The position numbers were made by a program, and so were the translations under genes. Positions 20,416 through 41,943 of a stretch of DNA of 64,000 nt are shown piece by piece. Positions within the stretch are counted from its first letter, which is position 1; every line of letters begins with the position of its first letter. The notes below the pieces were generated by a model that searched no databases, was not told the origin of the DNA, and saw only the letters and a list, made by a program, of their open reading frames with translations. Source of the stretch: a virus (taxonomy: Duplodnaviria; Heunggongvirae; Uroviricota; Caudoviricetes); IMG/VR virus record IMGVR_UViG_3300035544_000169; one strand, given 5' to 3'.

Positions 20416-23400
20416 ATGGCTGCAAACAGATACATAGAGAGGTATAAAAAAGGCCTCCAGCAAAGAGAAGAAAAAAGACAGTCTAAAATGGCCTGGTCTA
20501 AAACAAATAAATTTCTAACAGGTGCAGCCGCAATTACAGCAGGTGCATTTGCAGCCCACACACTTCACCCCAAAGGTATAATAGGAGCTTTAGAGAGTGT
20601 AGCAAAGCCCACAAATGCTGCCTTTGGAGCCTTCAAAAGCACAATGGATAGATATGTGTCAGGTTCCGGGCACGGAGTTTTAAAGGGTGTTGATACAGCT
20701 ATAAACGCTGTTGATGTATTTAATAATCCAAAGGGTGCAGTAGACCATTTTAGAAGTACATATAAAAGTATTGCAAAAAGAACAGACGACTTACATATAG
20801 ATATTTTAAGAAAACAGAAAACAAATGTTATTGACGGAATTAAAAAGGCATTAAAAAGAGATGCTATCAGCACTCAGGCAAATAAGAATTTAAATAAATT
20901 TATCGAAGATAATGAAGGCGACTTAGCCAAAATAGCCTCTGATTTTCAGAAAAAAAACCAGTACAGACTTTCAAAGCTAAGTTCTGGCGATAAAAAAGAA
21001 GTTAACTATGCACTTGCAAAATTAGACTCATTTAATGAAGCTAATAAAGAAATTAGAGATAGTGCACAAAAAATGATATTTGACAGTATATCAGGGGCTT
21101 CAGAGGCCAGACCAAAGAATGTAGATAATATTCAGGCAGATGCCTTAAAGAAAATGATGGATGAGATTGTAGAAAACCAGCAGTCCCAGAGTTCATTTAT
21201 AAAGAAAAAGTTTAATAATATTTTTGGATACAAAAACGCAACGGTGGATGACCTTTTAAATTATGGTGACGACTTTTTAGATGATGAGAGCAGAAAGTTT
21301 TTAAACACTTTAAAGATAAACCACGGTGCTGACTTTAAAAAGTTTGTAGTAGATGACAGCCTATACATGTACAAAGGTAAGGTTGTTGATTCCAGAAACT
21401 TCAAAAAGCTTGGCAGAAATATTCGCTCAGGATTTTCTGGTGGTATTTTAGGTCACTTAACTTACCAGAGAGACTTAATGGCCATGAATGATTTCTCTAA
21501 GAGAGCTGGAACACTGATTCGTTCAGGCTACAATGTACCAACACTTGAAGGCTATGGAGTTTTAGGAAAAGACGGAGTTTTAAAAGAGTCATTAATTTCT
21601 GTTGGAGATAACATATACAGACTAAATGATATGTCAAAACCTCTGGCTGAAGGCTTCCACCTAGCTTCAGGAAGGTACGGCTCTACTAAGAGATTAGTGT
21701 CAAGTATGTCTGGAGTTAACGCTCCTGACTGGAGTAATGAAAGGGCATACAATTGGCTTTTAGATGTAGGGGGCAAGAGACAGCCGGGGCTTTTAACAAA
21801 GTTTAAATCTATTTTTACAAAATCTAAAGACCCACTATATTTCAAAAATGAAATGAACAGGCTCTTTACAGTAACAGAAGATATGGCTCAAAAAATACAG
21901 TCCGGCACAGCATTATCTGTTCTACCGGAAATAGATTACAGAATGATGAAAGACCTAGAACAGTATATGAGACATCAATCATCAGGCTTTGGTCATGAGA
22001 TGTTAGAAAAGGTCCTTCGTGATTTAGATGGTACAGAAATCAGCTCAAAACTAAAGGGATTAAAATTTGATACAGAAGATGACCTTGTTGAATCATATAT
22101 TAAAGTTACAAAAGAGCATCTAGGTAAACAAGGCGCTAAGATGCCAGATGATACATCTCTTAGGGCAAGGGCTTATAATATTCTTAATACATCAACTCAG
22201 AGAAAAAATAAAAGAATATTTGCCGGAAACAAACTGAACGAAGGTAAAGACAGGCTCTTAAGAGATATCTCAGAGAAGGTAACTAATCTAAGGGGTAGTG
22301 ACAGAACCCTAGAGATTGCAGAATCAATGTATAAAAATAAGGAGATATCAGGGGCCCAATTTGTTGAAATAAATAAATCAGTTGCAAGCTTTAAAATAAG
22401 CGGTTCTATGGACGGCTCATCATTTGATGGAGCTGAAATCACTAAGATTCTAGCAGGCAAGAAAGACCCTTATGTAAGGCTTGCTATTGAAGATTCACTA
22501 AAAGAAACACACCCTGCTTTTGGCTTCGGAAGGGTTAAGGAATTCCAAGAAAACTTCCACGGAGATGTACTTCCGGTAAAGAAGTTCAACCCTAAGATTT
22601 TAAACGACTGGAAGTCAGTTATAACCGGCGGACGAAATGACATGTCCAAAGTTAATAAGGGAACTCTTTTAACTTACGGTATGATGCACAGACTAAATGA
22701 TATGGTAAGGCATTTTGATTTTATGCCTCTTGCTATGTCAGATGACAGTATGGGCTCACCTTTATCAACATTTGGCAACATTATGGCTAAAAGAGTTATG
22801 CCGATTTACGCTGGTGTTACAGCTTTAAAATATACAAGCGATTACTGGTCTGAAATATCAGGTAGTGGATACACACTAGAACAGCACAAAGAAAGAACAA
22901 AGGCAAATGCAACCTTAAGACTATCAAAGTTTAAAGATGCAACAGGCCTTACAAGTGCTTTCAAATTTTTTGATAGGGTAACTCCGGGAAATGAAGGTAT
23001 AAAGGCAAGTGTTAATAAGCTTCCTTTCATGGGACCTTTAGCTCCTTTAACAATAGGTATGGAAGCCCTAAATTCTGTCGGAACATTCAGCGGCAGAACT
23101 GAAAAAGAGTGGGTAGATTACTTCAATACAGGAGAGGACCCGGTCAGAAAGGGTAGGTACTGGATATTAGGTTCAACTCCATGGATGGGTGAAAGTATAG
23201 ACCACTACGAACCAAATAGCTATAGACAGGCTATGAGTCAGTGGGAATATACAGATACGGTTTACGGCTCAAGAGAAAATTACTGGGCTCACAGCTGGAT
23301 GCCTACTCCAACAGAACCTCTTGCACCAGTTAAACGCTTCGTGACGGACAGGTACTGGTTTGAAAAGATGCACTTAAAAGACAGACCATACCCTCTAACA

Positions 23401-26241
23401 GGAGAAATGTTTGACCCTAATACACCGTGGGGCACACTCTTAAATCCAACAATAGGCAGGATATTAAAACCACAAATTAAACTGTCTGCAGGTGCAACAG
23501 ATGAAGACTTAGAAAGAATAGAGAAAAATAATGCTTATGCCAAAGATGTAATAGCCAGATTTTCAGGTGGAGATTTGCAGCTTTCAACCTATATACCTAA
23601 ATATACAATGTCAACAAATGTTGGCGTTGCCACAGGTGGAGGAAGAATAGGTTCGGGTAATGTCATGGTAAATGGTGTTGCAGGCAATAAGGCAAATTCA
23701 AATGCAGTTGGTGTTCAAGGTGGTGGTCCGGGAGGTTCAGGAGCTGCTATTAGGCTTACTGAAAACCCTGAAAGCAGTGGTCTTGTAGTAAACGGCCAGA
23801 ACTACTCACTAAAAGATTTAAAGAATATAAACCAATCAATTATAGATAAATCAGGTAAGATAAGCAGGATAAACAAAAAGAACATTTTAAATACAGGATT
23901 TACAATGTCATATTACGAGCCGAGAGAAGAGGGCGAACTTGCTTTAGATGTGCAAAGCCCAACTGATATCGGCTACAGTATGGAAAGAACATTAGACATC
24001 TTCAAGGATATCACAGGTGCAAGAGGATTCTTAGCTTCTATGGTAACTGGAGGAGACGATTACGGTGAAGGTCAGGCTGTTTTAGCGACAGCATCTGATG
24101 CTTACGCTGCATCATCAAGGTTCTGGGATACAGGGCTTGGTGGCCGTGGTGGAGAGCTTTCAGAGATTTTCAGAAGATTTATCAACAAAAGACCTGGATT
24201 ATATAAGGTAATAAACGACATACCAAATACAATGCCCGGCTGGATGCCTGATAGGTTCCGCACTGGAGACCCTTATACAGAAGTAAACCGCGGCGAAATA
24301 AGGCTCCCAGGAGAAGCTTACGAGTCAATGAATAAGCTCCACCCAGATGAGTATGGAAGGTATGGAGCAGTTGATAGAGCAGCCATCTTAGCTGATATAG
24401 CACCATATTCACAGGAATATAAGCTTTGGTCTAAAATAGCTTCAGAACAGAATCTCTCACAGGAGGCCAAAGAGTTCTTAGCTCAGGCTAAGGAACAAAA
24501 AGAAGAGGCAAACAAAAAATATCATATGACACCATATAAGTTTTTGGGTCAGGATATAGAGAGAGAATCAGCTATTGTAGAGAAGTTTTTAGACTCCAGC
24601 CGCTTCACAGTTAAAGGTTCAGACAGAATATACCGCCTTGCAGGTGTTAACACCAACTTCAATGCAGAGACCGAAGAGGGCAAAAACACCCTAAACATAT
24701 TAGAACAGACAATGATGCCTGGAAGCGAAATAACACTTCTAGCATCAAAAGACAGCAACCCCAACGCCTCAACTCCAGCCGTTGTCTACAGTCAGGACTC
24801 AAATGTAAATAGAAGGCTTTTAGACAGCGGAGTTCAGGCCAAAGAAGAAGATGGGGCTATTGATACTTATGTAAACTTAGGCGTAGGAGGAAGGGCTTTA
24901 GGAAGGATATGGGAAGGAGTAGCACACGCCCCAATCCCTATAGTCCATAATAAATTCTTCAATGTACGCTCACCTATGGAACACTACAAAGACTATCAAG
25001 TTTACGGCAAAGAATGGCAGTCATGGAACGAGCCAGTTGACGACCTTTTAGTACCGTCATTCCAGAGTGCCTGGGCCAGAAATCCTTTCTGGGCTACATT
25101 ATCTGGTGCTACAGCAGGAGCTATAACAGGACTTCTGCTTGGAGGTCCCGGAGTTAGAAAGGCAATGAGTGGCTTCGGTGCGGTAGCTGCAGGTGTCGGT
25201 TCTATTGCTCGCTCACAGTACGAGTTGGAGACGGGTAAGGCGTGGATACCGGAAAGAAGAGAAGAAGAAAGAAAGATATGGGAATACTACGACCTCTTAA
25301 AGTTTGTTAAAAATAAGAGGCTATATAATAAATATGTAGACGTAGCTAAAAAAGAAGAAAATGTTGATGTTGAAAAGATAATAAGTGAAATGGAAGAGAT
25401 TGACGAAAGGCTAAAAAAGAAAGAAGAAATGCTTGAAGGCTTTTCAAAACACTTACTAAGATACGGCATCAGTAAAGAAGACACTGTCCAAAAACGAATA
25501 AACTCAGAGGGTAGGGTCGAATACAATTTAGTCACAGAAAAAGAGTTTATAGAATCAAAAAGAAAAGAAATACTTCAAGAATTAAGGGATACAAAAGCAG
25601 AAGAAGTACTTGTTGGCTTAGGCCCTTATGCAAGAATGGCGGTTAAATACAGACAGGAATACCGCTCTACACTATTTGGACTTGATGGAAGTTCAACTTT
25701 CCAGCAGATGTTTTCTGCTTTTCCAAGTAAGGATAGGGAATATTTACAGCATTTCTCTAAGGTTACAGACGAAAAGGAAAGAGAAGAAATACTAAAAATT
25801 GTTCCTGACAACCAGAAGAGAGCTTACAAAATTCTATGGGGTATGGAAACAGAAAAAGAATCTCTAATAGATATGTTCGGAGAGTATGCACTGCCAGATG
25901 AAAATTGGTTTGGCTGGAGGGAAGGGGCAGACCTTGAAGATTCAATGATAAAACTCATTGAAAATAATGGTTATGACCCTAAAGATTTCGGACTCTGGAA
26001 GGATTACACTGTAGAGGAAGAGCTAACACCAGCTCCAGTTGAGTATGGTAGGCGTTTCGACAGAAAGTCATCCGGATTTATCAGAACAAGATTAGAAGAA
26101 GTATTAACAGATTATGATATCAGAGATGTGGATATTAAAATAACTCCAAGAGAAGATAACAGTATAAATATAAATTTCGATATGGTACAGGATGTAACAG
26201 GAAAAATACAGCTTGAAATACAGAGAGCACTGGGGGGCTAG
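20416..26241 (+). CDS. Giant tape-measure-like/ejection protein with hydrophobic segments and degenerate SNase domain
   Basis: 1941 aa directly after chaperones; hydrophobic FLTGAAAITAGAFAA and FWATLSGATAGAITGLLLGG; SNase-like stretch at about 24565-24840. Confidence 0.7.
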   Translation: MAANRYIERYKKGLQQREEKRQSKMAWSKTNKFLTGAAAITAGAFAAHTLHPKGIIGALESVAKPTNAAFGAFKSTMDRYVSGSGHGVLKGVDTAINAVDVFNNPKGAVDHFRSTYKSIAKRTDDLHIDILRKQKTNVIDGIKKALKRDAISTQANKNLNKFIEDNEGDLAKIASDFQKKNQYRLSKLSSGDKKEVNYALAKLDSFNEANKEIRDSAQKMIFDSISGASEARPKNVDNIQADALKKMMDEIVENQQSQSSFIKKKFNNIFGYKNATVDDLLNYGDDFLDDESRKFLNTLKINHGADFKKFVVDDSLYMYKGKVVDSRNFKKLGRNIRSGFSGGILGHLTYQRDLMAMNDFSKRAGTLIRSGYNVPTLEGYGVLGKDGVLKESLISVGDNIYRLNDMSKPLAEGFHLASGRYGSTKRLVSSMSGVNAPDWSNERAYNWLLDVGGKRQPGLLTKFKSIFTKSKDPLYFKNEMNRLFTVTEDMAQKIQSGTALSVLPEIDYRMMKDLEQYMRHQSSGFGHEMLEKVLRDLDGTEISSKLKGLKFDTEDDLVESYIKVTKEHLGKQGAKMPDDTSLRARAYNILNTSTQRKNKRIFAGNKLNEGKDRLLRDISEKVTNLRGSDRTLEIAESMYKNKEISGAQFVEINKSVASFKISGSMDGSSFDGAEITKILAGKKDPYVRLAIEDSLKETHPAFGFGRVKEFQENFHGDVLPVKKFNPKILNDWKSVITGGRNDMSKVNKGTLLTYGMMHRLNDMVRHFDFMPLAMSDDSMGSPLSTFGNIMAKRVMPIYAGVTALKYTSDYWSEISGSGYTLEQHKERTKANATLRLSKFKDATGLTSAFKFFDRVTPGNEGIKASVNKLPFMGPLAPLTIGMEALNSVGTFSGRTEKEWVDYFNTGEDPVRKGRYWILGSTPWMGESIDHYEPNSYRQAMSQWEYTDTVYGSRENYWAHSWMPTPTEPLAPVKRFVTDRYWFEKMHLKDRPYPLTGEMFDPNTPWGTLLNPTIGRILKPQIKLSAGATDEDLERIEKNNAYAKDVIARFSGGDLQLSTYIPKYTMSTNVGVATGGGRIGSGNVMVNGVAGNKANSNAVGVQGGGPGGSGAAIRLTENPESSGLVVNGQNYSLKDLKNINQSIIDKSGKISRINKKNILNTGFTMSYYEPREEGELALDVQSPTDIGYSMERTLDIFKDITGARGFLASMVTGGDDYGEGQAVLATASDAYAASSRFWDTGLGGRGGELSEIFRRFINKRPGLYKVINDIPNTMPGWMPDRFRTGDPYTEVNRGEIRLPGEAYESMNKLHPDEYGRYGAVDRAAILADIAPYSQEYKLWSKIASEQNLSQEAKEFLAQAKEQKEEANKKYHMTPYKFLGQDIERESAIVEKFLDSSRFTVKGSDRIYRLAGVNTNFNAETEEGKNTLNILEQTMMPGSEITLLASKDSNPNASTPAVVYSQDSNVNRRLLDSGVQAKEEDGAIDTYVNLGVGGRALGRIWEGVAHAPIPIVHNKFFNVRSPMEHYKDYQVYGKEWQSWNEPVDDLLVPSFQSAWARNPFWATLSGATAGAITGLLLGGPGVRKAMSGFGAVAAGVGSIARSQYELETGKAWIPERREEERKIWEYYDLLKFVKNKRLYNKYVDVAKKEENVDVEKIISEMEEIDERLKKKEEMLEGFSKHLLRYGISKEDTVQKRINSEGRVEYNLVTEKEFIESKRKEILQELRDTKAEEVLVGLGPYARMAVKYRQEYRSTLFGLDGSSTFQQMFSAFPSKDREYLQHFSKVTDEKEREEILKIVPDNQKRAYKILWGMETEKESLIDMFGEYALPDENWFGWREGADLEDSMIKLIENNGYDPKDFGLWKDYTVEEELTPAPVEYGRRFDRKSSGFIRTRLEEVLTDYDIRDVDIKITPREDNSININFDMVQDVTGKIQLEIQRALGG

Positions 26242-26244
26242 TAA

Positions 26245-29200
26245 ATGTACGATTTTGATAACATGCCGGCAGTCTCGTCGGATTACAAAGAAGAAATGTA
26301 TAATAAATACGGTTTAAAGGTTACAAATAGGGTCTCTGACCCTCAGCCTTCCTTTCTCTTTCAAGTAAGCAGTCAAAGAAAGGCTAAGGCAAAGCTTGAT
26401 AAAGCTGCCAATAAAGCCGTTCAGTATTCGCACAACTTTGAAGAGATAAATGCAATATATAATGACCTTGGTAAAATAAAAAATGCCATGACAGAAAATG
26501 GTGTTAAAAGAGGAACACTTGATATTTTCAAGGATGTAAATGCAGTAACTTACGGCAGAAACCCACATAGAGCTATTAGGAACTGGCAGAAGGCTATCAA
26601 CACGAACTCAAAAATAATTGGTTTCGATATAGAGAGTTTAGGAGATATGAATGAAGGTAATATTTTTACACCGACAGAAATCTCCTTCTACTCTGCCACA
26701 ATGAACGGTGATGAGCTTTCTAAAAGAGCCTTAGAGCGTTCATTTATTGTAGCACCAAATAGAGCTTCTGTTGATAATATCAACGAGCTATTTGATAAAG
26801 TACAGGCTTTTTACGAAAACGGCAGAACTCCAATGCTCAGCGACTCCGAAAGAAGGACTCTCGGAGATTTAATCAAATACTCAAACGGTGCAGAGTTTGT
26901 ACAGAAAAATTCTATGACAGAACTAGGAAAAGCTTCTAATATGTACAAACAGTTTGTTACTGATGGAGGTCAGCTTAAAAGATTAAGCTCTGCAAGTTCA
27001 GGTAAAAAGATGCTGGCCCTAGCAAGAGAGGGTTTGGGCAACTTACAAAAATATGGTAAAGATGCAAGTAGTGTAGCTCAAAACTTAAGCTACTATCTTG
27101 CCGAACAGAATGCAAATTCAAATGCCTTCTTTATGGGTCACAATATAGAAAATTTTGATAATATAGGCCTGACAAAATTCATGCAGGCTAACGGCTTTGA
27201 TAACGGATTTAAACCAAAACAGTATATAGATACACTGGATTTAGCAAACGCCTTTTATTCCACACCGCTTGACCTGCAGAAATTAAGCAGTGTAGATACA
27301 GGGCAGTTAACAAGACTTAACTCAGGTCATTTAAAAATGGAGAACCTGACCAAAGTTATGGGTTTTGGAAACTATACTCACTCAGCAGCTGATGATACAA
27401 GAAAAGCTTTTAACGTAGTCTCAAACTTATTTTTCAGCCAAGAGGGCCTCGACCACATAAATAAAAACATCTTATCTAGTGGTGGAGATTTTTCAAAGAA
27501 CTTTAATATAAGCTCCCTAAAACCCGGAGACGAGCTGTTTTCTACAGCAGGGGCAATGGATACAGGTAAAGGTCCATTGAGTTTTGTTACGGCATTCAAT
27601 GACGGCAAAGAAGTAGTAGATGGAAGCAAATTTTACATAAGTTCACACACAAAATACAGATTTGTAGGAAGTTTTAGGAATAAAGACTCGGTCGGAGTTA
27701 AGCTGCAGAATGCTATGACAGGGGAAAATGTCTATGTCAATAAGTCAAACGAGAAGGAATTAAGACAGTTTATCTATTCCAAATTTGACAATGCTGCAAA
27801 GTATTCAAATACCGATATGCAGAGAATGTATATGAATACCAGAAACGATATCGCTCGTTCTAAGTTCAGACAGATGACAAACAATATCAGCTTTAAAAAC
27901 TACAAAAACTTACAGGCAACATTAAAGGCCTATAACTTAGAAAAAGCACAGGGAAGAAGTCTTTTAAATAACGAACTTGATGAAATATTCTCATATACAG
28001 ATAAAAGCGGCTCTAAAATTATAAGGGGCAACTGGAAAGAAAACTACAGAAGAATGAGGGGCAGACTTACAAGTGATGCTCCTATACTAGACAAGCTTGT
28101 TAAGGAAGTAGAAGCACTGCATGGTGGAGATAAAGAAAACCCAAACTACTGGCCGGTGCAAAAAAGACACGCAGCAGTTGTAAATGCCTATCAGGAAATG
28201 CAAAAAGATTTTGGAAAAAATAAAGATATTATAAACCTTAAAAGCAACAAGGCTTACGGAATAGACCTTCTGGGGCCAGATGGTAGAAACACAAGAATCT
28301 CACTTGCGAGAAAATCAAATGCAAGACGTGACTTAAGAAGACTATTTAACTATACAGAGTCAACAGCAGGAAGAAACTTCAAAACAGCTGACGGATTTTT
28401 TATTGAAGTTTTAGACAGCGTAAAAGACCATGCAAGTCAGTACCAGAAGAATATGGCCAACAAAGATTATGAGGGCTTTATGTACAGGCTTGACGAAATT
28501 ATAAGACCTATGGCTAAAAGTCAGGACAATGCCTTCACCCAGATAAATGCACTTTCAGACCTACTGGTTGATTATAGAGATAAAATACCGGGACTTAAAA
28601 AAAGCGTGATGGAAGTTGAGGGACTTGGAGCAAGAAATGCTTTCACAACCCAAAAGATGATGGATAATGTGGATACATATTTAAGAAAAGGTTTAGACTA
28701 TGCTAGTGGAATAACCATCAATCACGGCTTTGCTAAGGGTCTTTCAGGTGGAGCTAACAACAGTGTTTTAACTACTGTAAGGGCTTTAGATGAAGCTTTG
28801 CAGAAAAACTATATGGCACTGGGAGTTAAAAAAGAATTCGTTTCAAATATACCTACAATGGAAAGCTCGCTAAATAGCACCATACGCAAATTTGGGACAG
28901 CGTTCTCAAGCAAAGGAGATATCGACTTAGGCTTTGAGCTCTTCAACACAGGTACGGTAGAAAAGCCGCAGGTATCAATGGCTATTTTCAAGCAGGGCTC
29001 AGATGATGTGCTCACACTTGATGCATTAAAAGCAAATAAAAATGCTGCTATAATAGATATACCTCTGGTTAATGCAGACCAGTATATTCATTACGGAAAC
29101 CAGAAAAAAATATCACCACTTGCACTCCTTTATAGGGATAAATTCAGTGCAGGAGCCGATATAAAAACAGGAACCTCTTTCAGCTACATGATGCATGAGC

Positions 29201-32200
29201 TTAACGGAGAGGCCAACAGTATGATTAAGGCAGCTCAGGAAGGCGACTTTAGAAGAATAGAAATGATAGCAAACGGTAAGATACAAAAATCTTTAGGCTA
29301 TCTCTCGGGCTCAAACAAGTATGTAAGAGACGCAGAGAAGATGTATTCTTCAACAGCAGAAGCCGACTTTCTTAAAAAAGGATATGTGCTATTTAGAGGT
29401 GTCTTTGAAAATCAAGGCGAACAGGTAGGGCTTGATGGTGAAACATTGTACCCATCTAAAAAGTTTAACATGTTTGCTGATGGCTCAGTTCAAAAAATGA
29501 TTAAAAATAAATTAGGAATTGATGCATCCTTAGAATCGACAAGAGGTGCACACGCAGTAAATCAGTTCTTTTTAAGCTCAATCGAAAACAGAAATTTTGT
29601 TAACTTCGGGATGTACAACTCTCCCGGTCGTGACAACATGATACAGATGAGAAATAAAAGAACACTTTCTAAAAAGGCTATAGAGTCAATACAGGACAAT
29701 ATAAATAAAGCTAAGGGTTATTCAGGACTCTCTATGGACCCCTTACTTATCACACAGTCCGAACAGTTTTTAAGAGATACTGATAATGCTTTTGCTAAAT
29801 ATCCAGGCGTTAATGTCAGCATAGCAAATGTTGATGAGCTTGAGGGAATAGAGAAGCTAAAAAATGCCTTTGATAAAAGCGACAAATACACTATGGAAGG
29901 TGTTTTTGGTAAATCTCCAGCTAACTTCCCTTCTTTCTGGGAAAACCAGGCTATTGTATCTCAAAGTTTTGCAGACTCGCTACATTCAGTAAACTCATAT
30001 ACAAAAGACTACAAGCTGTCTGATTTAGATGAAGGCTTTATTAATAAAGTTAAACGTTCACTTAAAGATGGCGGCTCAGGTTACAGAATGGGTTACATGG
30101 AGCAGATGGGTCCTGACGAGATATTTAAAAGGGTATCCAGAAAAGATGGGGTTGAACACTTCATTACAGGATTCAACATCAATGACGGCAAGATAAGCTT
30201 CAAGTTCGAAGAGAACTTCAGCACAAGGGCTGGGGTAACCAAACTATTTTTGGCTTCAGAGAAGGTTACTGTCAGAAATATTGTGCCTGATGAAATTATG
30301 AAGGCAGCATTCGGCGAAGGCGTTCATGTTGCAGGTAATATAAACCACGCAGGACATCAGGGTTATGGAGAAGTAGCAGAGGGCTTAATCAAAGAGTCGA
30401 TAAATAAAATAAACCATTCAAATATAGATAGACAAATCAAACAGGAAGCTATACAGGAAGTTCAGGATATTGTAGATAGAACCTTTGGTCTGGCAACAAC
30501 AATCAAAGAAGAGGGCAAAACAGGTAGCGGTAAGTTTAGACTTGTAATCAACAACAACAAAGCCGGATTCAAGCACCTGATGGTAGCCGAAGGAGGAATA
30601 GACCAGGCAAATCTAGGTCTTAAAAATATTGACCCAAGAGTTGCCAACGTAGTTAGAAACAAAGGTGCCTTAAGTATCAAAGATTTAAGAACTAACTTAA
30701 ACAACATAAAATCCTTCAACCTAGGATTAAAAGATAATATCTTAAACCTAGAGGCAGTCTTAGCTCAAAACAGTGAAGACATAAACTTCATGTCAGTCGG
30801 AGGCTACGGCAAAAAAGGCGTAAAAGTAGGTCCAAGACATATCGGAGTCATGATGGACAAGGGTTACACAGAATACGCCAGATGGCTAAAAGACTCAGTT
30901 TTAGAAGAAGCAAAACAGGCAAACAGGATTTCATCACTACCTGGAACAAGAGGCTTAAATGGAGCACTTGAAGGCCAATCAAGAGCTATGGAACTGCTTG
31001 CAAGAGCAGCTCGAGGTGAAGGTGCAGTACCAGATGGTTCCAGAATAAATGAATACACAGAAGTTCTAGAAGAGTTAAGCGAGTTAAGAGAAGGTGGAAC
31101 TCAGGGGCAGGAAAAAGGCCTTTTCTCTAAATCGGATTTAACAAAGACAGTTTTTGACCCCGAATACAGAAGAAGAGGGAAAAACGGCCTTTATATTTCA
31201 CTGCCAGAAGAACTTGAGATAGAGTTTGGAAACGAAAAAACAGGAAGAACAAGGGTTAAATTAAACGAAATATTCCTTTCAGATACGGCAATTGAGATGT
31301 CCAAGAAAAAAAATGGAGAAGCCCTTTACTCTTTAGGAGAAATAGGTAGGGCAGAATCAGACATCTTTAATGCGATGAGGGAATATAATACAGCAGTCCA
31401 AAACTCCTCGCAACTTGCTGGAGACCTTTCAGCAAGGGAGGCTAAAGAAAAAGCTTTAAGAAGTATGAAAACAGGTATCAAAAATTACTATAACGCAATC
31501 TTCCATCAGTCTACAAGCTCTCACGGGCAAAAATATAACAGGGCATTATCGGCAAGGTTTAAAGGCTCGGGAAGGCTTAACCTGCAGATTATGTCTCCAG
31601 CTCTAGAAATTGCAGATGAGGTTAATAGAGCAAGCGGCACTACAGAAGAGAAAATATCAAAGGTAGCAAGAAAATTTGATATAGATGAAAAAGTAATAAA
31701 AAAAGCATATGCAGGGGTAAAGGGTGCTGGCTACAAAGGCCTTGACAAATCTAATGCTATTTATATCAGTCGAGATAGAGCAAAAGACATGCTTAAAGGT
31801 TTGGAAAAAACAGACAAAAAACAGTTTGACAATATAATGTCAGGACTTGAAGAAGGTAAAGGAATGCCTGGAATGATGTTCCGCTCACCTGTAATCCATA
31901 CAGAGTCAGCAATACCTGTTGAATACAGAATAGATGATGAGCTTGATTATGATACTGTTAGAATATCATCAACAATGGCAGCTGCTCAATTTGGTGATTC
32001 TGATGGTGACAGGGTATCTTTTGTAATGGCCTATAATAAACAAGGTGTCAGAACAAATGCCAAAAAAATGGAAGAAGAAGTAGCCAGAGTTGCTGATGAA
32101 ATGAGAAACACTTCATACAACTCAAAAGGGCCATGGGTTAAAAGGAATATGGTAGCCCTAGAAAAAGATGTAACTTTAGGTAAGAAGAATTATGTAGATT

Positions 32201-33309
32201 CAGTATTTGAAACAATAGAATCAAATTCAGACTTTAAGGGCAAACTTGATGTCTGGGATACAAGGCAAATGACAAAATCAGAGCTTGAAAATTATGCAAC
32301 AAGGCTTTCTAAAGCTAAACTTACAAATGCAACTTATACAGGTATGATTAATAACCTGACAGATGAAATCAAAAGACTTGGTAAGGGTTATGCAACATCC
32401 GACAAAGAGCTTGTTAATTTTGCTTCTGGGCTTGGATTAATCACTCAGGAAGCTGTATCGGGTAAACACTCAATGACTAAAAAGTCCGGCTCATCAGTAT
32501 CAACAGACCAGATTATAAAATGGGTTAGAGAAGGTAAGTTCAGCAACTTTGAAGGCATGATGGACCTATCACCAGAAGAGATACAGGCGATGAACGATGT
32601 CCACTTTAGAATGAGAAAAGATGCAAATAATCCGCTTGAAAATGTGGCAAACAAGATATTTTTAAGTGAGAAAGTTGCAAGAGAAGTTAACGTTGCAGAT
32701 TATTCCATGATAAAAGATACAATGGTAGATAGTTTAGAAAAAGAAATGGCAAGTGTTTATACAACTGGCCCGGGCAGAAATATCTACAAGGGCAATCAAA
32801 ACTTATCAAAAAATGCTGGTCATATAGCTGAAAACGGAATCAACTATACAGGCAATGCAGCTTCGGAATTTTTAAAGGTAGCAAATACCAAAACTGCAGC
32901 AATTATGTCATCAGAAGTAGCACAGCATAAGGCTTTCGGTCCTATGGCGGCCGCAGGATTAGCTATAGGTGGAGCTATAATGGGTGCTGGAGCTGCAATG
33001 AGCACACAGCCTCTACCTATGGACTACATGAATAATCCGGCAATGAATGCCGTTTCTGGTGCAGGCTCAAGACAGCCCATGATGGATATGAACAGCATCC
33101 AGAATATAGTAAATAATCAGGGTATGGATATCATAATTAATGGAAACACAACAATAGATAAAGATGTAAACGAATTGGCAGGAGTTGTATCACAAAGCGT
33201 AGGTTCTGCAATGAATATACCGGTTAACATAAATGTCAACGCCAGTGATAATCGAGGTTCAATAAACCAAAGCTGGATAGAAGATAGAATTCTTGCTGCA
33301 CTTGAATAG
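26245..33309 (+). CDS. Single-chain two-barrel RNA polymerase (beta and beta' homology) with N-terminal DEDDh 3'-5' exonuclease; probably virion-packaged
   Basis: Exonuclease motifs GFDIES, GHNIENFD, HSAADD; beta motifs in order (NFGMYNSPGRDNMIQ, PGVNVSIA, ENQAIVSQSFA, GVTKLFLASEKVTVRNIVP, GVKVGPRHI); beta' motifs in order (HGQKYNRALSARFKGSGR, FRSPVIH, FGDSDGD, TQEAVSGKH). Confidence 0.88.
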   Translation: MYDFDNMPAVSSDYKEEMYNKYGLKVTNRVSDPQPSFLFQVSSQRKAKAKLDKAANKAVQYSHNFEEINAIYNDLGKIKNAMTENGVKRGTLDIFKDVNAVTYGRNPHRAIRNWQKAINTNSKIIGFDIESLGDMNEGNIFTPTEISFYSATMNGDELSKRALERSFIVAPNRASVDNINELFDKVQAFYENGRTPMLSDSERRTLGDLIKYSNGAEFVQKNSMTELGKASNMYKQFVTDGGQLKRLSSASSGKKMLALAREGLGNLQKYGKDASSVAQNLSYYLAEQNANSNAFFMGHNIENFDNIGLTKFMQANGFDNGFKPKQYIDTLDLANAFYSTPLDLQKLSSVDTGQLTRLNSGHLKMENLTKVMGFGNYTHSAADDTRKAFNVVSNLFFSQEGLDHINKNILSSGGDFSKNFNISSLKPGDELFSTAGAMDTGKGPLSFVTAFNDGKEVVDGSKFYISSHTKYRFVGSFRNKDSVGVKLQNAMTGENVYVNKSNEKELRQFIYSKFDNAAKYSNTDMQRMYMNTRNDIARSKFRQMTNNISFKNYKNLQATLKAYNLEKAQGRSLLNNELDEIFSYTDKSGSKIIRGNWKENYRRMRGRLTSDAPILDKLVKEVEALHGGDKENPNYWPVQKRHAAVVNAYQEMQKDFGKNKDIINLKSNKAYGIDLLGPDGRNTRISLARKSNARRDLRRLFNYTESTAGRNFKTADGFFIEVLDSVKDHASQYQKNMANKDYEGFMYRLDEIIRPMAKSQDNAFTQINALSDLLVDYRDKIPGLKKSVMEVEGLGARNAFTTQKMMDNVDTYLRKGLDYASGITINHGFAKGLSGGANNSVLTTVRALDEALQKNYMALGVKKEFVSNIPTMESSLNSTIRKFGTAFSSKGDIDLGFELFNTGTVEKPQVSMAIFKQGSDDVLTLDALKANKNAAIIDIPLVNADQYIHYGNQKKISPLALLYRDKFSAGADIKTGTSFSYMMHELNGEANSMIKAAQEGDFRRIEMIANGKIQKSLGYLSGSNKYVRDAEKMYSSTAEADFLKKGYVLFRGVFENQGEQVGLDGETLYPSKKFNMFADGSVQKMIKNKLGIDASLESTRGAHAVNQFFLSSIENRNFVNFGMYNSPGRDNMIQMRNKRTLSKKAIESIQDNINKAKGYSGLSMDPLLITQSEQFLRDTDNAFAKYPGVNVSIANVDELEGIEKLKNAFDKSDKYTMEGVFGKSPANFPSFWENQAIVSQSFADSLHSVNSYTKDYKLSDLDEGFINKVKRSLKDGGSGYRMGYMEQMGPDEIFKRVSRKDGVEHFITGFNINDGKISFKFEENFSTRAGVTKLFLASEKVTVRNIVPDEIMKAAFGEGVHVAGNINHAGHQGYGEVAEGLIKESINKINHSNIDRQIKQEAIQEVQDIVDRTFGLATTIKEEGKTGSGKFRLVINNNKAGFKHLMVAEGGIDQANLGLKNIDPRVANVVRNKGALSIKDLRTNLNNIKSFNLGLKDNILNLEAVLAQNSEDINFMSVGGYGKKGVKVGPRHIGVMMDKGYTEYARWLKDSVLEEAKQANRISSLPGTRGLNGALEGQSRAMELLARAARGEGAVPDGSRINEYTEVLEELSELREGGTQGQEKGLFSKSDLTKTVFDPEYRRRGKNGLYISLPEELEIEFGNEKTGRTRVKLNEIFLSDTAIEMSKKKNGEALYSLGEIGRAESDIFNAMREYNTAVQNSSQLAGDLSAREAKEKALRSMKTGIKNYYNAIFHQSTSSHGQKYNRALSARFKGSGRLNLQIMSPALEIADEVNRASGTTEEKISKVARKFDIDEKVIKKAYAGVKGAGYKGLDKSNAIYISRDRAKDMLKGLEKTDKKQFDNIMSGLEEGKGMPGMMFRSPVIHTESAIPVEYRIDDELDYDTVRISSTMAAAQFGDSDGDRVSFVMAYNKQGVRTNAKKMEEEVARVADEMRNTSYNSKGPWVKRNMVALEKDVTLGKKNYVDSVFETIESNSDFKGKLDVWDTRQMTKSELENYATRLSKAKLTNATYTGMINNLTDEIKRLGKGYATSDKELVNFASGLGLITQEAVSGKHSMTKKSGSSVSTDQIIKWVREGKFSNFEGMMDLSPEEIQAMNDVHFRMRKDANNPLENVANKIFLSEKVAREVNVADYSMIKDTMVDSLEKEMASVYTTGPGRNIYKGNQNLSKNAGHIAENGINYTGNAASEFLKVANTKTAAIMSSEVAQHKAFGPMAAAGLAIGGAIMGAGAAMSTQPLPMDYMNNPAMNAVSGAGSRQPMMDMNSIQNIVNNQGMDIIINGNTTIDKDVNELAGVVSQSVGSAMNIPVNINVNASDNRGSINQSWIEDRILAALE

Positions 33310-33320
33310 GGGTGTTTTTT

Positions 33321-36300
33321 ATGGCAAAGTACAATTACGCAACAACTAAAAATATAATAATGAAAGAAAATCTTCAGTCAAAGCCTGTTAAAGCAAAAGT
33401 CGTAAGAGTTCAGGATGGTGACACTATATATGTTACCAGTTCAGACCCTATATTTAAGGGTACTGAAAAAGAATTTGATGGCACTTATTCAATAAGACTC
33501 TCGGGTGTTCAGGCTCCCGAGGGCACATCTTTCTGGGATATGGAAGATGATAAGTCTGGCTTAAGAGATTATGATGATTATAGGTACACAGGTTATGAAG
33601 AAAAAGATGAGTTTTCTGAAGAGTCCTTTCTTTTTATGAAAGACTTACTTTTGGGTAAGGAAGTAATACTTGATTTAAGGACTAAAGAAAACGGGAGCTT
33701 GATAACAGGAAGGTTTTCACGGCCGATAGCAATTATCTTTGCTAAAATGGGAGAAGAATATGTAAATGCCAACGTTTCTCTTTTAACAAACTCTCTCGGG
33801 ACACCTTATTATGTTGAAGCTATGAACTTAAGTGACAGCGAGAAAAAAGAGTGGTCTAACCTATCTATTATAGCAGATATGCTGAAGATGGAAGAAGAAA
33901 CAGAAAAGATTGAAGAGGACTTAGATGAGTTTGTAGGTTCTTTTGACCCTGAAACAAACATCAAAATAGGTGACAGCATTCTTCCGATACCTCCTGAAGC
34001 TATTGTGGTAAACGACATAAATGAAGTCAATCCAACATCAGTCATTCGTGGTGGAAGCACTTTAATGTCCTCAACAGGCCACAGGCAAAAACAGGTACAG
34101 ATGGAGTTTTATTTCGACAGCAACAAAAGAACAAAAGAACTTATAAAGGGAAGAACCTATGAAGGTGACCAGATTAACGGCTTTCCTAAATTAGCTGCCG
34201 GTAAAAGCGCAGTTATCATGCAGGATGGAGAGGAATTTAGACCAGTATATTACATAAACGGATTGAGGCCTTTAATGGCCCAATTTAAATTGACACCTTT
34301 TTTACCTATAGAAAATGAATACCTAAACAAAACTCATGATATCTCAGCTTTAACACTTCAAAACCTATCAATCAGTAATGTTGAGGGATTTCCGGGACTT
34401 GTTAAGGCTACATTAATAGCACTGGAGTTTAATCATGAAGCTTACATAAATATGGTTGGACCTTTTAAAGATGTCTTCGACTGGGGTTTATTTAGATTTT
34501 ACTACCAGAGACTTATAGATGGTACCGGAATAAAGCATAGGGGTACAAAACTACCCTTTTACCAGAGAGACGGAGAGGATTTTTCCTTCTTTACAGTAGA
34601 TAGCTGGTCCTTACAGAAAAGAGAAAACCTTGAAGCTTCACTGGAAGATGTCTTAAGAGAATACCAGATAGACCTTGAAGAAGGCAGTACAGAATACGAA
34701 AAGCTAGTCTTTGAATATGAGGTGTTTACAGAAGCTCTGGAACAGTATGAACTTTTTAATGAGCTAAAGGGAAGTTATAACCTTAATAATGAGGATTCAA
34801 AAAAAGAGCTTTACCTAGAATACATAAGAAAAATTGCTGACAAACAGGAAAGAAGAAATGACAGCTTCAACGATGGGCTCTATTATGAGCCTAATATCCA
34901 CAACGAGCTTGATTTCTTGGAAAATGGAAGACTTAGCCGCTACGATAATCTAATTGAAGACCTTGTTAAAATTGAAGGCTATGATGGTGACTATTTCGAT
35001 ATAGCTTTAAGAAGCGAGAAAAATAAAGAATTTTTAATCAACTACTTAAAGCAAAAAGAAGAAGATAATTTAATACCAACAGAACTCGATTTAGTTAAGT
35101 CAACTGAAAAAGAAATCGAGAGGATAAAAGAGGCTAATTCTTTTAATATTAAAATCTCAAGAGACAGCTTTTTATATATCAAAGACAGAGTAATAGCCGG
35201 TGGTAAAGACCTCTTAAAAGAAAGAGAAGAAGCTGTATCTATGACCGACAATCAGATGGATGATTACGAGTGGAACAAACATTATTACAGCGACCTTCAT
35301 TTAAACCAAATAAATGTATCGATGTCAAACGGCGTAAATACCGTAAAGTTAAATATGCACACAAAACCAACTCATCAGTATTTAGGCTCAAAAGATATAG
35401 TTATTTCAACTAGCTTTGTCACAGATAACGAACATACATTAGAGAGCATTAACTTTCTTGCATCTCATACTAGTGCTATGGAGCTTAGATACAAAAAAGT
35501 TTTAGATAATCCGGTAATGAAAGTCCAAAACAATATAGTTGATATGTTTGGATTAGATGGTGCTTATATTAAAAATATAGAGACAAATACTGTACCTTCT
35601 ATGCCGGGATTATTCCAAATTGAGATTTCATTTTTCGGCTATATTGGTGCGCCAGGAGACAAAGACTCTCTATCACTTCAGTACCGTTCGGAGCTTGGTG
35701 TCGACGGAAAAATGGGTCACGATAATTTAACAGACTATTTCAATATGAAAGAGAGACTTAAATACATCAACCTTTATCCGGACCTTGAGCTTCCTAGATA
35801 TTCAGAGCTTCCATTAAGGCACGAACTATTTGATGCTAATGATGACAGCTTTGTAGACCCTGATTTTTATGCTCTTGATGTGCCAAAAGTATTTTCAGAA
35901 GATGTAATCAGGGCTTTATATGATGAAGATGATGCAGTAATTATCGGTAGAGACACAGAGGGTAATGCTGTTAGAGCTTTAGTTGATGATAAAGGTAATA
36001 TAAATTTAATTGACTCTAATATTCAAAGCGAATACAAAAGAGATTCCAAGCCAACACTTGCAGATATAGCATACGAAAAAGGAGATGTAGGCTACAATGA
36101 GTTAAGCGAGTTTATGGATAATAGAAGTTTGGATAGAAGCAACATGTCTTTTGTATCAGACAAAGAGCTTAAAAGCTACCTTGCCTCTGAAGATAAAATG
36201 GTAAGTAATGTTAAACATAAAAAAATAAAGATTAGTGACTTCTGGGAGTCATATGTTATTAAATGGCTTGATAGCACTGTTCAGAAAGATATTAGTGAAA

Positions 36301-39300
36301 TAGAAAGAATAATTGCAGCAGGTTTTATTGTAGGAAACTGGGATAAGGACTACATAGATGATGACTACCTGGAGTTTCCAAAGAAAAGCCTTTACAGAAA
36401 CAGCAGTGGAGAATTGGTAGATGAACTATCTGAAGCTAGCTATTATGGTGTTTTAAATTTAAATGGAGATAATTTAAACCAAGATGTTAAGAAAAAAATA
36501 GCTTCTAATTACAGGGCCAGTATACTAAAGTATGAGCTTGAATCTGGAAAAATATATGACATATTAAAAGAAAAATCTCCACAAATAAACTTTGACAGAA
36601 TCGAAGGCACAGGTGTAAGCAATCTTTATGAGAACTATTCTAAAAGAGAAAGTGTTGACTATATGTTCAAGATGCTTTCATACTTTTTAGTTAAAGGCAT
36701 CTCACTAAATGATATATCTAATTACGAAGGAGGTTATCCTGAGTCTGCAAATAATGTCAAGGAAGCATATTTAGGATTTGAAAAATCAGCTAAAAATATT
36801 ATAGGCTCTAAGGGTATTTATATAAACCCTACAGAAATGATTGATATGCTACCTAACTTTGCGATGTTAATTAAAAAATCTCTAGAATCTATTAACGGAG
36901 ATAATTTTGTTTTAACATCTGAAGGAACATACATGCAGTCAAGAAGAGAAGATGTTAGGTTTGCAAGTTCGTTCAACGACATGCTTGAGTATGACAGAAA
37001 AGGAAGGTTAATCAGAGCTTTTCCATCCTATTACATGCTCCTGATTGATGAGGGTAGAGAGTTTATGTTCTGGAAAATGCAGGATTTATTCTACCACTAC
37101 AATGGTGTACAGAGTATAGATGTTGTCAGAGATAAGAAGAACATATCAGATACATGTATGATTACAATGTCAAACTCAAAGGGCAGATTATCAGATGCTT
37201 CTGGTGGTTACAGAAATAAATACTATCAGGAAAAAGGAGTAATGGAGACTTTATGGTCTTTAACACCTTTTGCTGAATTTGAGTGGGAAAAAGCTAAGAG
37301 AAACTCAGAGTTTGAAAGCGTACAGCTTGCAACAGGTGCCAGGCTTCATTTAAGAATGGGCTATGGTTCAACACCAGATAAGCTTCCAACTGTATTCAAC
37401 GGAACTATAACAGAGCTTCAGCTTGGTGATACTATAACCTTTGTAGCTCAAAATGACGGCATAGAGTTAAACAAACCAATACCAGCATCTCCCAACGAAA
37501 AGACTGATTTTGACATATTTGGACAGCTAGATGAACCAAGAACTATAATCAGCAAGATAGTAGGAGATAGAGGCAACTTATGGTCTAGGTTTATGAATAA
37601 CATTTCAGGTAACTTACTCTATAATGAGAGTGCTTACGGAATACAGCATTTTGGAGAGCCCAAAAGGCCTAAGTGGTGGGATGAGAGTCAGTATTTAACA
37701 AAAAGACATCCAATAACTGATATATATATAAATCAAAACTCAAGGTCTAGCGACAAGATGGAAAGAGCAGTCAGGGATGAAGAAAGAACTTATGAGGTTA
37801 CACAGAACATAAACTCATCTCTTTATGAAAACAAAGACTTCTCTATGTATCTCTATGGTAAGACAGTATGGGATGTTTTGGAAACATGTGCTCTTGTAGC
37901 ACCTAACTATATAGCAGCAGTCCACCCATTTGCTTTTAGAAATACAATCTTTTTTGGCCACCCAAACTTTGATTTGGCTTATGACTATGAAGCTGAAATG
38001 GATGAAAAGGGCAACTATATCAGGGAAGAATCTAAAGAGGAAGAAGTTGAGCTTTCGTTTACAGGTAACGGAACTAGAAAAACCTTTGAACTAAGAATGA
38101 ATATAATTGAAGGAAGTCTTGAAGTTAGGGATGGAGACAAAAAAATAACAGATAATATCGACAAGATTGACCATAGATTAGGTCGTGTTATTTTCAGTAC
38201 CCCTCCAAAAGACGATGTAAAAAATGTAATTTTTACCTTCAAAACCTTGGTTCGAGGAAAGATAGAGCCGTTAAATGTTAGAGAAAAGTTAAAATCTTAC
38301 AGGCAGAACCATTTCTATTCAAGCTATTATGACATAATAGCAAATAATATTAGAGCTACAGAAAAGAATATGTACACAGCAGTTAAGCCTGTCCTTTCAA
38401 AAGACGGAATCTATAAAGAGCTTGATGAGATGTTTGTAGACACAGATATTTTTCCTGATAGACAGAGGTTAAAAAAGATAGATACTTCAATACCAACCCC
38501 TGATTTTGTCAAGAAATTTACAAACACCTTTCAGGTTACACCAGAAAACGCTGAGATAAATGCAAGAAGGTATGGGGCTGGAGCCTTAAAACAGGCAGTA
38601 GAGAATATGTACGACGGAGAGATAGTAGTTACAGGAGACCCTTCTGTTAAACCATATGATTATGGATACCTAGCAGATGTAAGAGATAGAATTTCAGGAA
38701 CCTTTGAAGTCTCATCAGTTGTCCACAGCTTAAATGATACAACTGGTTTTGTAACATCAATCAATCCATCACCGGTAGTTTCTGTAAATGAGGGCCTTCA
38801 ATACGACAAGGATTTTTGGAAGTGGACAAACTCCAAGTTCTCAAGTCTTTATGCTAACAGTGTTGTAGCAAGGCTTTCGACATACACAGCTTTAGCAAGC
38901 CTGAAAAGCGTTCTAGAATCACTAAAGATAACAAGTGCAGCTGGCTCACTTCTCCCGGCAACAAATGCCGGTATGGCAGCTACTAAATACCTTGACGTAA
39001 CAACAGACGCTTTAAAGCATTCAAATCTTGGTTACCTTCCATTTCTTTTAGGAAAAAATGTTTTAGAAAGAATAAAGGACCTCGGAACAAAAACAGATAA
39101 GTTTGTTATTTGGGTTTCAAGATTTTTAGATAATGCAAATAAAATGAGCGACATATCCAAGCTTGGTGGAAAAGGGCTTAAGAACGTAGACTCTTTGAGG
39201 AAGATGATGATTTCAGGTAAGTTTTCCAGCAGGGCACAAAAGATAAGTGACGGATTAAATGATTTCAGAAACGGTTATGTAAGAATGGGAGAATACCTAA

Positions 39301-41562: not shown

Positions 41563-41943
41563 ATGGATTCTATCAGAGATTTCAAAGGGGCAAGTTCTGG
41601 CGATATTATAATAGATGAAGGCAAACTGCTTTTAGCAGATTTTAAACAAACGGTAAAGCAAGGTATAGAAAAAAGATTGAAGACAGATAATCCAGACTGG
41701 TACAGGCATTTTAATATAGGAAGTGACCTTGAAGATTTAAGAGGTATGGATAATACAAGACAGACTGGAGAATCCGGTCGGGCTAATATAGTAAGAGCGC
41801 TGACACATGATGGTTTTATTGAAGAAAAAGACTTGAATGTTAGGGCGGTACCTACAGGAGGAACCGAAATTACATATTATATTGCAGTAAGACTCGGTTA
41901 CAACGAACAGATAACAATGGAGTTTCCAATAGATATAGCTTAA
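41563..41943 (+). CDS. Baseplate wedge/sheath initiator (gp25/DUF2634-like)
   Basis: GDIIIDEGKLLL..QGIEKRLKT..DWYRHFNIGSDLEDLRG..IVRALT; upstream of baseplate J. Confidence 0.7.
   Translation: MDSIRDFKGASSGDIIIDEGKLLLADFKQTVKQGIEKRLKTDNPDWYRHFNIGSDLEDLRGMDNTRQTGESGRANIVRALTHDGFIEEKDLNVRAVPTGGTEITYYIAVRLGYNEQITMEFPIDIA

Follow-up and report, generated by a model that had tools for sequence, protein, structure and literature searches.

The tail module of an uncultured, contractile-tailed phage of the class Caudoviricetes (IMG/VR record IMGVR_UViG_3300035544_000169), of which a stretch of 64,000 nucleotides was analysed and is called the window below, contains three consecutive giant genes, and the middle one encodes a protein of 2,354 residues, hereafter P0001, that is related in its C-terminal half to both large subunits of cellular RNA polymerases (RNAPs). 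We consider it likely that this middle giant is a virion-borne, injected single-chain two-barrel RNAP that starts the transcription of the phage. The homology to RNAP, the modelled fold, the conservation of the active site and the position of the gene (open reading frame 26245-33309, plus strand; residue numbers follow P0001) are observed, and it is from these that we infer its activity, template, packaging and timing. By analogy with P23-45 gp96 (PMC10770324), crAss-like gp66 and the virion RNAP of N4, a single-chain RNAP core in a giant protein of the tail genes means that the phage probably brings its own transcription enzyme into the host. An earlier note on this DNA had proposed a hidden single-polypeptide two-barrel RNAP at positions 29590-32480, which correspond to residues 1116-2079 of P0001, and all the peptides and residue numbers that it quoted are present there.

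Homology to RNA polymerase subunits

As a lone query, P0001 had no match in Pfam, PHROGs or the PDB (phmmer), a tblastn search of 50,697 phage records recovered the exonuclease part alone, in three Bacillus phages, and a profile built from three sequences returned only noise from the PDB. An exhaustive profile search of 1.84 billion representatives yielded 32 proteins, nearly all of 2,100-2,600 residues, and a word-indexed database queried with the family alignment gave only three further members, which brings the P0001 family to about 35 giant proteins of 2,100-3,200 residues.

The profile of this family matched the RNAP beta'/gamma chain 8syi_D (E 8.8e-10), the phiKZ non-virion RNAP (nvRNAP) chain 7ogp_A (E 9.4e-9) and dozens more beta' chains of the PDB. 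Over about 140 residues of the HMMER alignment to beta', the motifs S-x-G...R-L-x-x-S-G-R, R-x-P-T-x-H and D-x-D-G-D are paired with their beta' counterparts, including NRAPTLH and NADFDGD, and the three beta' motifs are thereby aligned just as the earlier note had paired them (E 8.8e-10). A comparison with E. coli beta' by hhalign gave a probability of 91% (E 1.1e-6), the family PF00623 was touched by nine of 31 members (best E 8.2e-5), and a feature search of the ESM Atlas gave a weak lead (score 0.79) to a viral cluster with PF00623. A search for PF00562 in the G001 record, a 33.5-kb fragment, gave no match.

On the beta side, hhalign with single-sequence templates was too insensitive for motifs other than the two-lysine region and one N-terminal motif. 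The only match of the polymerase region to E. coli beta places G-T-K1333...E-K1340 on GDK1065...GNK1073 (E 0.012), which is weak by itself and collinear with the rest. Likewise, the only match of the profile of residues 428-1103 places IDIPLVNADQYIHYGNQKKI on beta residues 98-143 (IPLMTDNGTFVINGTER; E 0.045), again weak alone and collinear, and it marks a putative beta N-terminal motif, IDIPLVNADQYIHYGNQKKISPL, at 29050-29130 (plus strand), in which P940 is invariant.

The same searches gave little for the single-chain polymerases of other phages. PF05183, the family of the YonO-like enzymes, was absent among the 25 Pfam families listed of the 34 found for 31 members, and hhalign of the P0001 family reached E 0.061, off the catalytic motif, against the YonO-like gp99 of Bacillus phage 0305phi8-36 and E 0.075 against gp66 of Cellulophaga phage phi14:2.

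Predicted structure of the polymerase core

With three sequences the AlphaFold model had a mean predicted local distance difference test (pLDDT) of 38.7, and an alignment of 34 rows was needed: with it, the model of residues 1090-2110 (model residue 1 is residue 1090 of P0001) reached a pLDDT of 88.9 and a predicted template modelling score of 0.87. It was compared with the PDB by Foldseek and with 48,161 representatives by VIA-align. The best 50 Foldseek matches listed are all largest-subunit chains of RNAPs, headed by the AR9 nvRNAP chain 7s01_d (E 3.3e-7), and there were at least 500 matches at E <= 0.001.

The first half (model residues 1-424/465) aligned in VIA with second-largest subunits of bacteria, eukaryotes, plastids, African swine fever virus (ASFV) and the phages AR9 and phiKZ, with Z 12.8-14.7 over 280-350 residues. 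The phiKZ nvRNAP chain 7ogp_C scored Z 14.7 (298 residues aligned, root-mean-square deviation 4.0), AR9 7s00_C and the plastid-encoded polymerase Z 14.0 each, and X. oryzae beta 580-1283 Z 12.8, with Pol IV, Pol I and ASFV also among the matches; a re-alignment of the top 1,000 Foldseek matches gave the same picture (e.g. V. cholerae beta 552-1295, Z 14.3, 347 aligned). This beta/Rpb2-like half (residues 1090-1554, 29512-30906, plus strand) is predicted from the model and from conservation to hold the lysine barrel, a double-psi beta-barrel (DPBB-B), with R1129, Q1134, E1233, K1333, K1340, G1525 and R1531. It is followed by a connector between the barrels (residues ~1570-1760, 30952-31524, plus strand), which may be clamp-like: the largest-subunit alignments begin at chain residues 10-20, near model residue 497, and the archaeal RNAP clamp construct 3qqc_A aligned with model residues 481-671, though weakly (Z 6.0, 144 aligned).

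The second half (model residues 497-1015) aligned with largest subunits, namely vaccinia Rpo147 (Z 11.0, 355 aligned), Pol I (Z 10.3), archaeal A' (Z 10.3), Pol II (Z 10.2) and M. tuberculosis beta' (Z 9.5). Its beta'/Rpb1-like catalytic barrel, DPBB-A, is placed at residues 1774-1954 (31564-32106, plus strand) by the profile, hhalign, DPBB matches and invariance, and carries SGR, R1880-x-P1882 and D1918-x-D1920-G-D1922, the latter at 31996-32010; isolated or designed DPBB domains aligned with model residues 685-865 at Z 6.4-8.0. A long bridge-helix-like helix is predicted at residues 2011-2047 (32275-32385, plus strand; model helix 922-958), with G2033 and N2037 and within the stretch aligned to the largest subunits, and a trigger-loop-like element at residues 2053-2077 (32401-32475, plus strand; model helices 964-988), with K2074 and H2075, after the bridge helix as in beta'. 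According to the model, residues 1090-2110 thus fold as a fused beta-beta' core with two facing DPBBs, a bridge helix and a trigger loop. The single-polypeptide two-barrel core claimed in the earlier note is borne out by the profile searches and the model, with a beta/Rpb2-like first half and a beta'/Rpb1-like second half, and the check that it had proposed, an AlphaFold model compared by Foldseek with RpoB/RpoC, finds two DPBB barrels around D1918-D1922.

Whole-model matches to single-chain enzymes were weaker: QDE-1 Z 8.7, ZmRDR2 Z 8.2, P74 gp62 Z 8.0 and gp96 of Thermus phage P23-45 Z 6.9/6.4. The phi14:2 gp66 structure 6VR4 and PolD were not among the best 50 VIA matches listed, which leaves room for similarity further down. 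The core is therefore nearer to multisubunit beta/beta' than to the YonO, crAss-like or P23-45 enzymes, because beta and beta' reach Z 9.5-14.7 and E 1.1e-6 and the scores for gp96, gp66 and gp99 are weaker. P0001 falls outside the YonO/QDE-1 clade as far as PF05183, absent from the listed families, and the scores of QDE-1 and beta (Z 8.7 vs 14.7) can tell. The YonO, crAss-like and P23-45 enzymes, named as precedents in the earlier note, hold as such for the single-chain class, but the core itself lies closer to the multisubunit enzymes.

A search of the BFVD database with the model gave family members as its top hits, either unnamed or labelled 'Minor tail protein' (E 6e-24). Two proteins of Acinetobacter jumbo phage vB_AbaM_ME3, matched at E 2e-7 and 5e-6 over about 630-650 alignment columns, and one of Microcystis phage MaMV-DC, matched at E 2e-4 over 896 columns, also resemble the two-barrel model; all three are uncharacterised and, from these structural matches, may be further unannotated single-chain RNAPs.

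Conservation of the active site

In the 34-row alignment of the polymerase region, whose members are 16-65% identical to P0001, R1880, P1882, D1918, D1920, D1922 and G2033 are invariant (34/34 rows), N2037 and K2074 are kept in 33 rows each, G1921 in 31 and H2075 in 26. The lysines of the beta-like half, which stand for Rpb2 K979 and K987, are nearly as constant, with K1333 in 29 of 31 members and K1340 in 30 of 32. R1129, Q1134, E1233, K1333, K1340, T1342, G1522, G1525 and R1531 are kept in most members, and together with G1122, N1131, Q1235 and E1339 they make up the best-conserved columns of the beta-like part; those of the beta'-like part are S1775, R1880, P1882, D1918, D1920, G1921 and D1922. 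All full-length members have RxP and, 38 residues on (39-42 in a few), DxD[G/S/T/D]D, about 400-590 residues from the C-terminus; the counterparts in Rpb1 are R446 and P448 for RxP, and D481, D483 and D485 for the metal-binding loop.

Eight residues are common to all two-barrel polymerases (PMC2919709), and seven of them are invariant or nearly so in the P0001 family. The eighth, at the position of E1233 (the 'ED' motif, equivalent to Rpb2 D837), is E or D in 30 of 32 members, and the next residue is N1234 in P0001 and D in only some members. When the ten motifs of the earlier note are laid on the alignment, nine fall on best-conserved columns and the tenth, 'PGVNVSIA', does not hold up as well, being weakly kept (G1188 in 22/31); the agreement of the motifs as a whole is far above chance expectation.

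Exonuclease and remaining domains of P0001

The whole gene (26245-33309, plus strand), as read from the open reading frame list and the translation, would encode an exonuclease, a helical linker, the two-barrel RNAP and a C-terminal hydrophobic or anchor region. The N-terminal domain (residues ~100-420, 26542-27504, plus strand) is by its sequence motifs a predicted intact DEDDh 3'-5' exonuclease: the Exo I DxE, Exo II D and Exo III HxxxxD motifs are all present, and D128, E130, D305, H379 and D384 are invariant in 30 members. Its profile (A5) matched the TREX-like 9mrc_A (E 1.6e-10) and also the PolC exonuclease, ExoI and DnaQ in the PDB. The region that follows (residues ~430-900, 27532-28944, plus strand) is poorly conserved and possibly helical, its profile (A6) having only weak matches to designed helical bundles.

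Behind the polymerase, a Gly/Ala-rich hydrophobic segment (residues 2230-2253, 32932-33003, plus strand) is the only one in P0001 above 1.4 on the Kyte-Doolittle scale and is a candidate membrane helix. The conserved C-terminal domain (33004-33309, plus strand) is common to gp146 of 0305phi8-36 (BLASTP, P0001 2181-2346 vs gp146 2361-2522, E 8e-6). At least 1,350 of the 2,354 residues of P0001 thus lie in globular enzyme domains, and residues ~430-900 alone are possibly tape-like, with the weak matches just mentioned.

Gene context and relatives

All genes of the window are on the plus strand, and the window is a single phage structural module. The gene order is portal (3410-5356), major head protein (8051-9175), two tail-sheath paralogues (11903-13417 and, with 882 residues, 14029-16677), tail tube, small tail genes, the three giants, sheath initiator (41563-41943), baseplate wedge (41956-42777) and more structural genes. 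The upstream giant (20416-26241, 1,941 residues) is a homologue of the 0305phi8-36 virion protein gp145 (BLASTP E 3e-89) and of WH1 gp096 (E 8e-150), and the downstream giant (33312-40487, 2,391 residues) of the baseplate hub gp147 (BLASTP E 7e-40) and of WH1 gp094 (E 8e-54). P0001 itself lies between the tail chaperones and the baseplate hub, in a myophage tail module the tape-measure slot, and with a gene order as in 0305phi8-36 the tape-measure locus in a contractile-tail module was rightly recognised in the earlier note. The downstream giant also matches PHROG 20474 (E 7e-173), which bears the label 'endolysin', and has a hydrophobic segment at its residues 2050-2078. The second sheath paralogue has a weak match to a glycoside-hydrolase PHROG (E 2.6e-5), and 0305phi8-36 also carries a sheath and a sheath paralogue.

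The trio of giants after the tail chaperones is also found in metagenomic relatives and in cultured phages. In Bacillus phage vB_BceM_WH1 it consists of gp096, gp095 and gp094, all labelled 'virion structural protein', and gp095 (L007:14677-22224) is a full family member, matched by the RNAP profile at E 5e-66 and by the exonuclease profile at E 6e-53. Full members are also present in Bacillus phages Edson and KLEB27-3, with the label 'structural protein' in the latter. The mis-annotation that the earlier note had foreseen is thus found among the relatives, which are labelled 'minor tail protein', 'structural protein' or 'hypothetical tape measure protein'. In a distant relative (L006), the first giant has a weak SNase match and the third has SLT and faint NlpC/P60 matches.

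In 0305phi8-36 the trio is gp145, gp146 ('hypothetical tape measure protein', found in virions by mass spectrometry according to the record note) and gp147 (baseplate hub). Here gp146 (L009:32623-40236) is without DxDxD and without an RNAP match and has kept the exonuclease-like domain and the C-terminus. Its DEDDh-exonuclease-like domain is in the middle of the protein (residues ~1200-1705, family profile E 1e-8), and that of the RNAP-bearing family is N-terminal. The same phage encodes gp99 (L010:43-3783), a free YonO-like RNAP (PF05183, E 1e-20; PMC2147016; PMC7824862), and a PF05183 gene was not found in WH1. A comparison of the two genomes therefore sets gp99 and a polymerase-less gp146 in 0305phi8-36 against a polymerase-bearing giant and no PF05183 in WH1, which suggests that the two are alternative solutions to one need, although two genomes are too few for a rule.

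In regards to the host, the Bacillus-phage relatives point to the phylum Bacillota, presumably also for the phage of the window. DNA near-identical to 29590-32480 (80-100% of sampled words) occurs in 20 sequencing runs from 17 studies of oil-field, shale-gas, gas-well, subsurface, groundwater and freshwater metagenomes, with no RNA run listed among them, which makes the phage a recurring member of deep-subsurface communities. Its G+C content of 36% would suit a candidate host of the Halanaerobium type.

Proposed role and alternative explanations

We propose that P0001 is a component of the virion and is passed on into the host cell. The tail-operon position of the gene links it to the virion indirectly, as do the two neighbours and the C-terminus, which are homologous to mass-spectrometry-verified virion proteins of 0305phi8-36, and the 'structural protein' labels in WH1 and KLEB27-3. 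At infection P0001 would be expelled through or with the tail, alongside its two giant neighbours, and would probably be held at the entry site by the C-terminal hydrophobic helix and the tape-like end. Residues ~900-2110 would then act as a single-chain, cell-type DNA-dependent RNA polymerase, in which the beta-like half would contribute the lysine barrel (K1333, K1340) and the beta'-like half the metal-binding D1918-x-D1920-G-D1922 loop, R1880-x-P1882, the bridge helix and the trigger loop, and which would transcribe the first phage genes from the entering DNA with no need for the host enzyme. The DEDDh exonuclease would travel along, and RNA 3'-end trimming, DNA-end processing or an attack on host nucleic acid are candidate roles for it.

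Several points weigh against this proposal. Polymerase activity and virion packaging are predictions for every member of the family, and the label 'virion structural protein' in the WH1 record may reflect annotation by similarity. A globular core of about 1,000 residues with a clamp-like connector cannot pass the tail tube in the folded state, so that the protein would have to be unfolded or metastable in the tail lumen, or stored elsewhere. The gene content of the phage was judged from the 64-kb window, and a second RNAP may lie elsewhere in the genome. At the active site, N1234 directly follows E1233 in the 'ED' motif of P0001, so that the exact set of Mg-B ligands is uncertain, and the residue that reads the ribose 2'-OH, equivalent to beta' N458, is not conserved in the family, so that the sugar specificity of the polymerase is unreadable from the sequence.

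Some of the observations would also suit a mainly structural role in the tail or in ejection, for instance as a tape measure or a channel former, with the polymerase core as an inactive relic kept as a scaffold: P0001 is in the tape-measure slot, its positional counterpart gp146 has no polymerase module and is a virion protein all the same, and P0001 has a hydrophobic helix and the conserved gp146-like C-terminus. We find this quite unlikely, since the Asp triad and R/P never vary, and the two lysines, the bridge-helix G/N and the trigger-loop K hardly do, across about 34 sequences that are otherwise only 16-30% identical, which argues for selection on catalysis and not on a scaffold. It is very improbable, in turn, that P0001 is an active RNAP that is made after infection, like YonO or P23-45 gp64, and never packaged, its position among the tail genes being incidental. 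In its favour, Firmicutes phages often have single-chain two-barrel RNAPs of the non-virion kind (PMC2919709), as 0305phi8-36 does with gp99; however, the strict synteny of the three giants inside a late tail operon is kept in distant relatives, the C-terminus is common with the virion-verified gp146, and a late operon is a poor place for an enzyme that is needed early.

The exonuclease raises the question of whether an active two-barrel polymerase could have a main job other than early mRNA, be it genome internalisation by transcription, priming, or DNA synthesis proofread by the DEDDh domain. Proofreading for DNA polymerases is the usual task of DEDDh exonucleases, and the one of the P0001 family is invariant; archaeal PolD is a two-barrel polymerase paired with an exonuclease. 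That the 2'-OH-reading Asn of beta' is not conserved would agree with such a role, and a motor could be fixed to the entry pore by the C-terminal hydrophobic helix. Yet the best structural matches are RNAP beta and beta', and they take in the bridge helix and trigger loop, elements that RNAPs do not have in common with PolD (PMC10770324), and no PolD chain is among the best 50 VIA matches listed, although this is not proof; we thus regard a different main job as doubtful, with a modest chance left to it. There is only a small chance, in our estimate, that the exonuclease-polymerase giant is a membrane-anchored entry machine, kept at the tail tip and pore by its C-terminal helix, that pulls the genome of about 200 kb in by polymerising, while the DEDDh domain edits the product or prepares the end of the DNA. 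Taken to its extreme, this idea would have the machine synthesise DNA, and it would then be the first PolD-like two-barrel DNA polymerase of a virus to have a proofreader fused to it.

Significance and comparison with known polymerases

If the injected polymerase that we favour is real, it would extend the injected-RNAP strategy, so far shown in few other phage groups, to large contractile-tailed phages of Gram-positive hosts, and it would call into question whether the middle giant of the 0305phi8-36 lineage is rightly named a 'tape measure'. Injected RNAPs, which make a phage independent of the host enzyme at the start of its programme, are established in N4-like, crAss-like, phiKZ-like and P23-45-like phages. 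Giant virion or tape-measure proteins that conceal a single-chain two-barrel RNAP are of a kind already known; what sets the P0001 family apart is the contractile-tail context, the DEDDh exonuclease fusion and the closeness to beta/beta'. No description of the family, of its cultured members or of an exonuclease-RNAP fusion was found in the literature, and a survey of viral RNAPs lists neither WH1 nor 0305phi8-36 (PMC10770324). Culturable systems are at hand in Bacillus phages WH1, Edson and KLEB27-3, and the modelled core has only about 1,000 residues (about 1,200 if the weak beta-like motif upstream is part of it), a size that makes it interesting for structural work and for the evolution of RNAPs.

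The nearest known arrangement is that of gp96 of Thermus phage P23-45 (PDB 8H2M/8H2N; PMC10770324), a tape-measure-fused virion RNAP that transcribes the pre-early genes. Like P0001, gp96 is a single-chain two-barrel RNAP within a giant protein in the tape-measure slot, has a DxDGD loop outside which ordinary searches detect no similarity to known RNAPs, and presumably enters with the DNA to carry out the first transcription. Unlike P0001, it belongs to a siphovirus and has an N-terminal, clamp-less, flat polymerase followed by about 3,900 residues of tape, whereas P0001 comes with a contractile tail and has its polymerase in the C-terminal half, behind the exonuclease and with a predicted clamp-like connector; the structural scores for gp96 (Z 6.4-6.9) are also low next to those for beta/beta' (Z 9.5-14.7).

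Among the other single-chain enzymes, phi14:2 gp66 (6VR4, crAss-like) is likewise a giant virion protein, of 2,180 residues, with a single-chain two-barrel RNAP and a place beside other giant structural genes, but it comes from a podovirus, has DFDID as its motif and belongs to the QDE-1/YonO-like clade, and hhalign reached only E 0.075. The YonO-like RNAPs (RdRP family, PF05183), such as gp99 of 0305phi8-36, share with P0001 the single-chain two-barrel polymerase and a phage of the same lineage; unlike P0001, gp99 is a free, non-structural enzyme of about 1,250 residues with no profile similarity to it (E 0.061). The best sequence and structure matches for both halves are instead the multisubunit RNAPs of cells, such as E. 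coli beta/beta', and of jumbo phages, namely the phiKZ and AR9 nvRNAPs (7OGP, 7S00/7S01), with which P0001 shares the collinear motifs: the two-lysine barrel, SGR, RxPxxH, DxDGD, the bridge helix and the trigger loop. It differs from them in that both halves are in one chain, the N-terminal lobes of beta are strongly reduced, and the core is contained in a tail-module protein of 2,354 residues together with an exonuclease.

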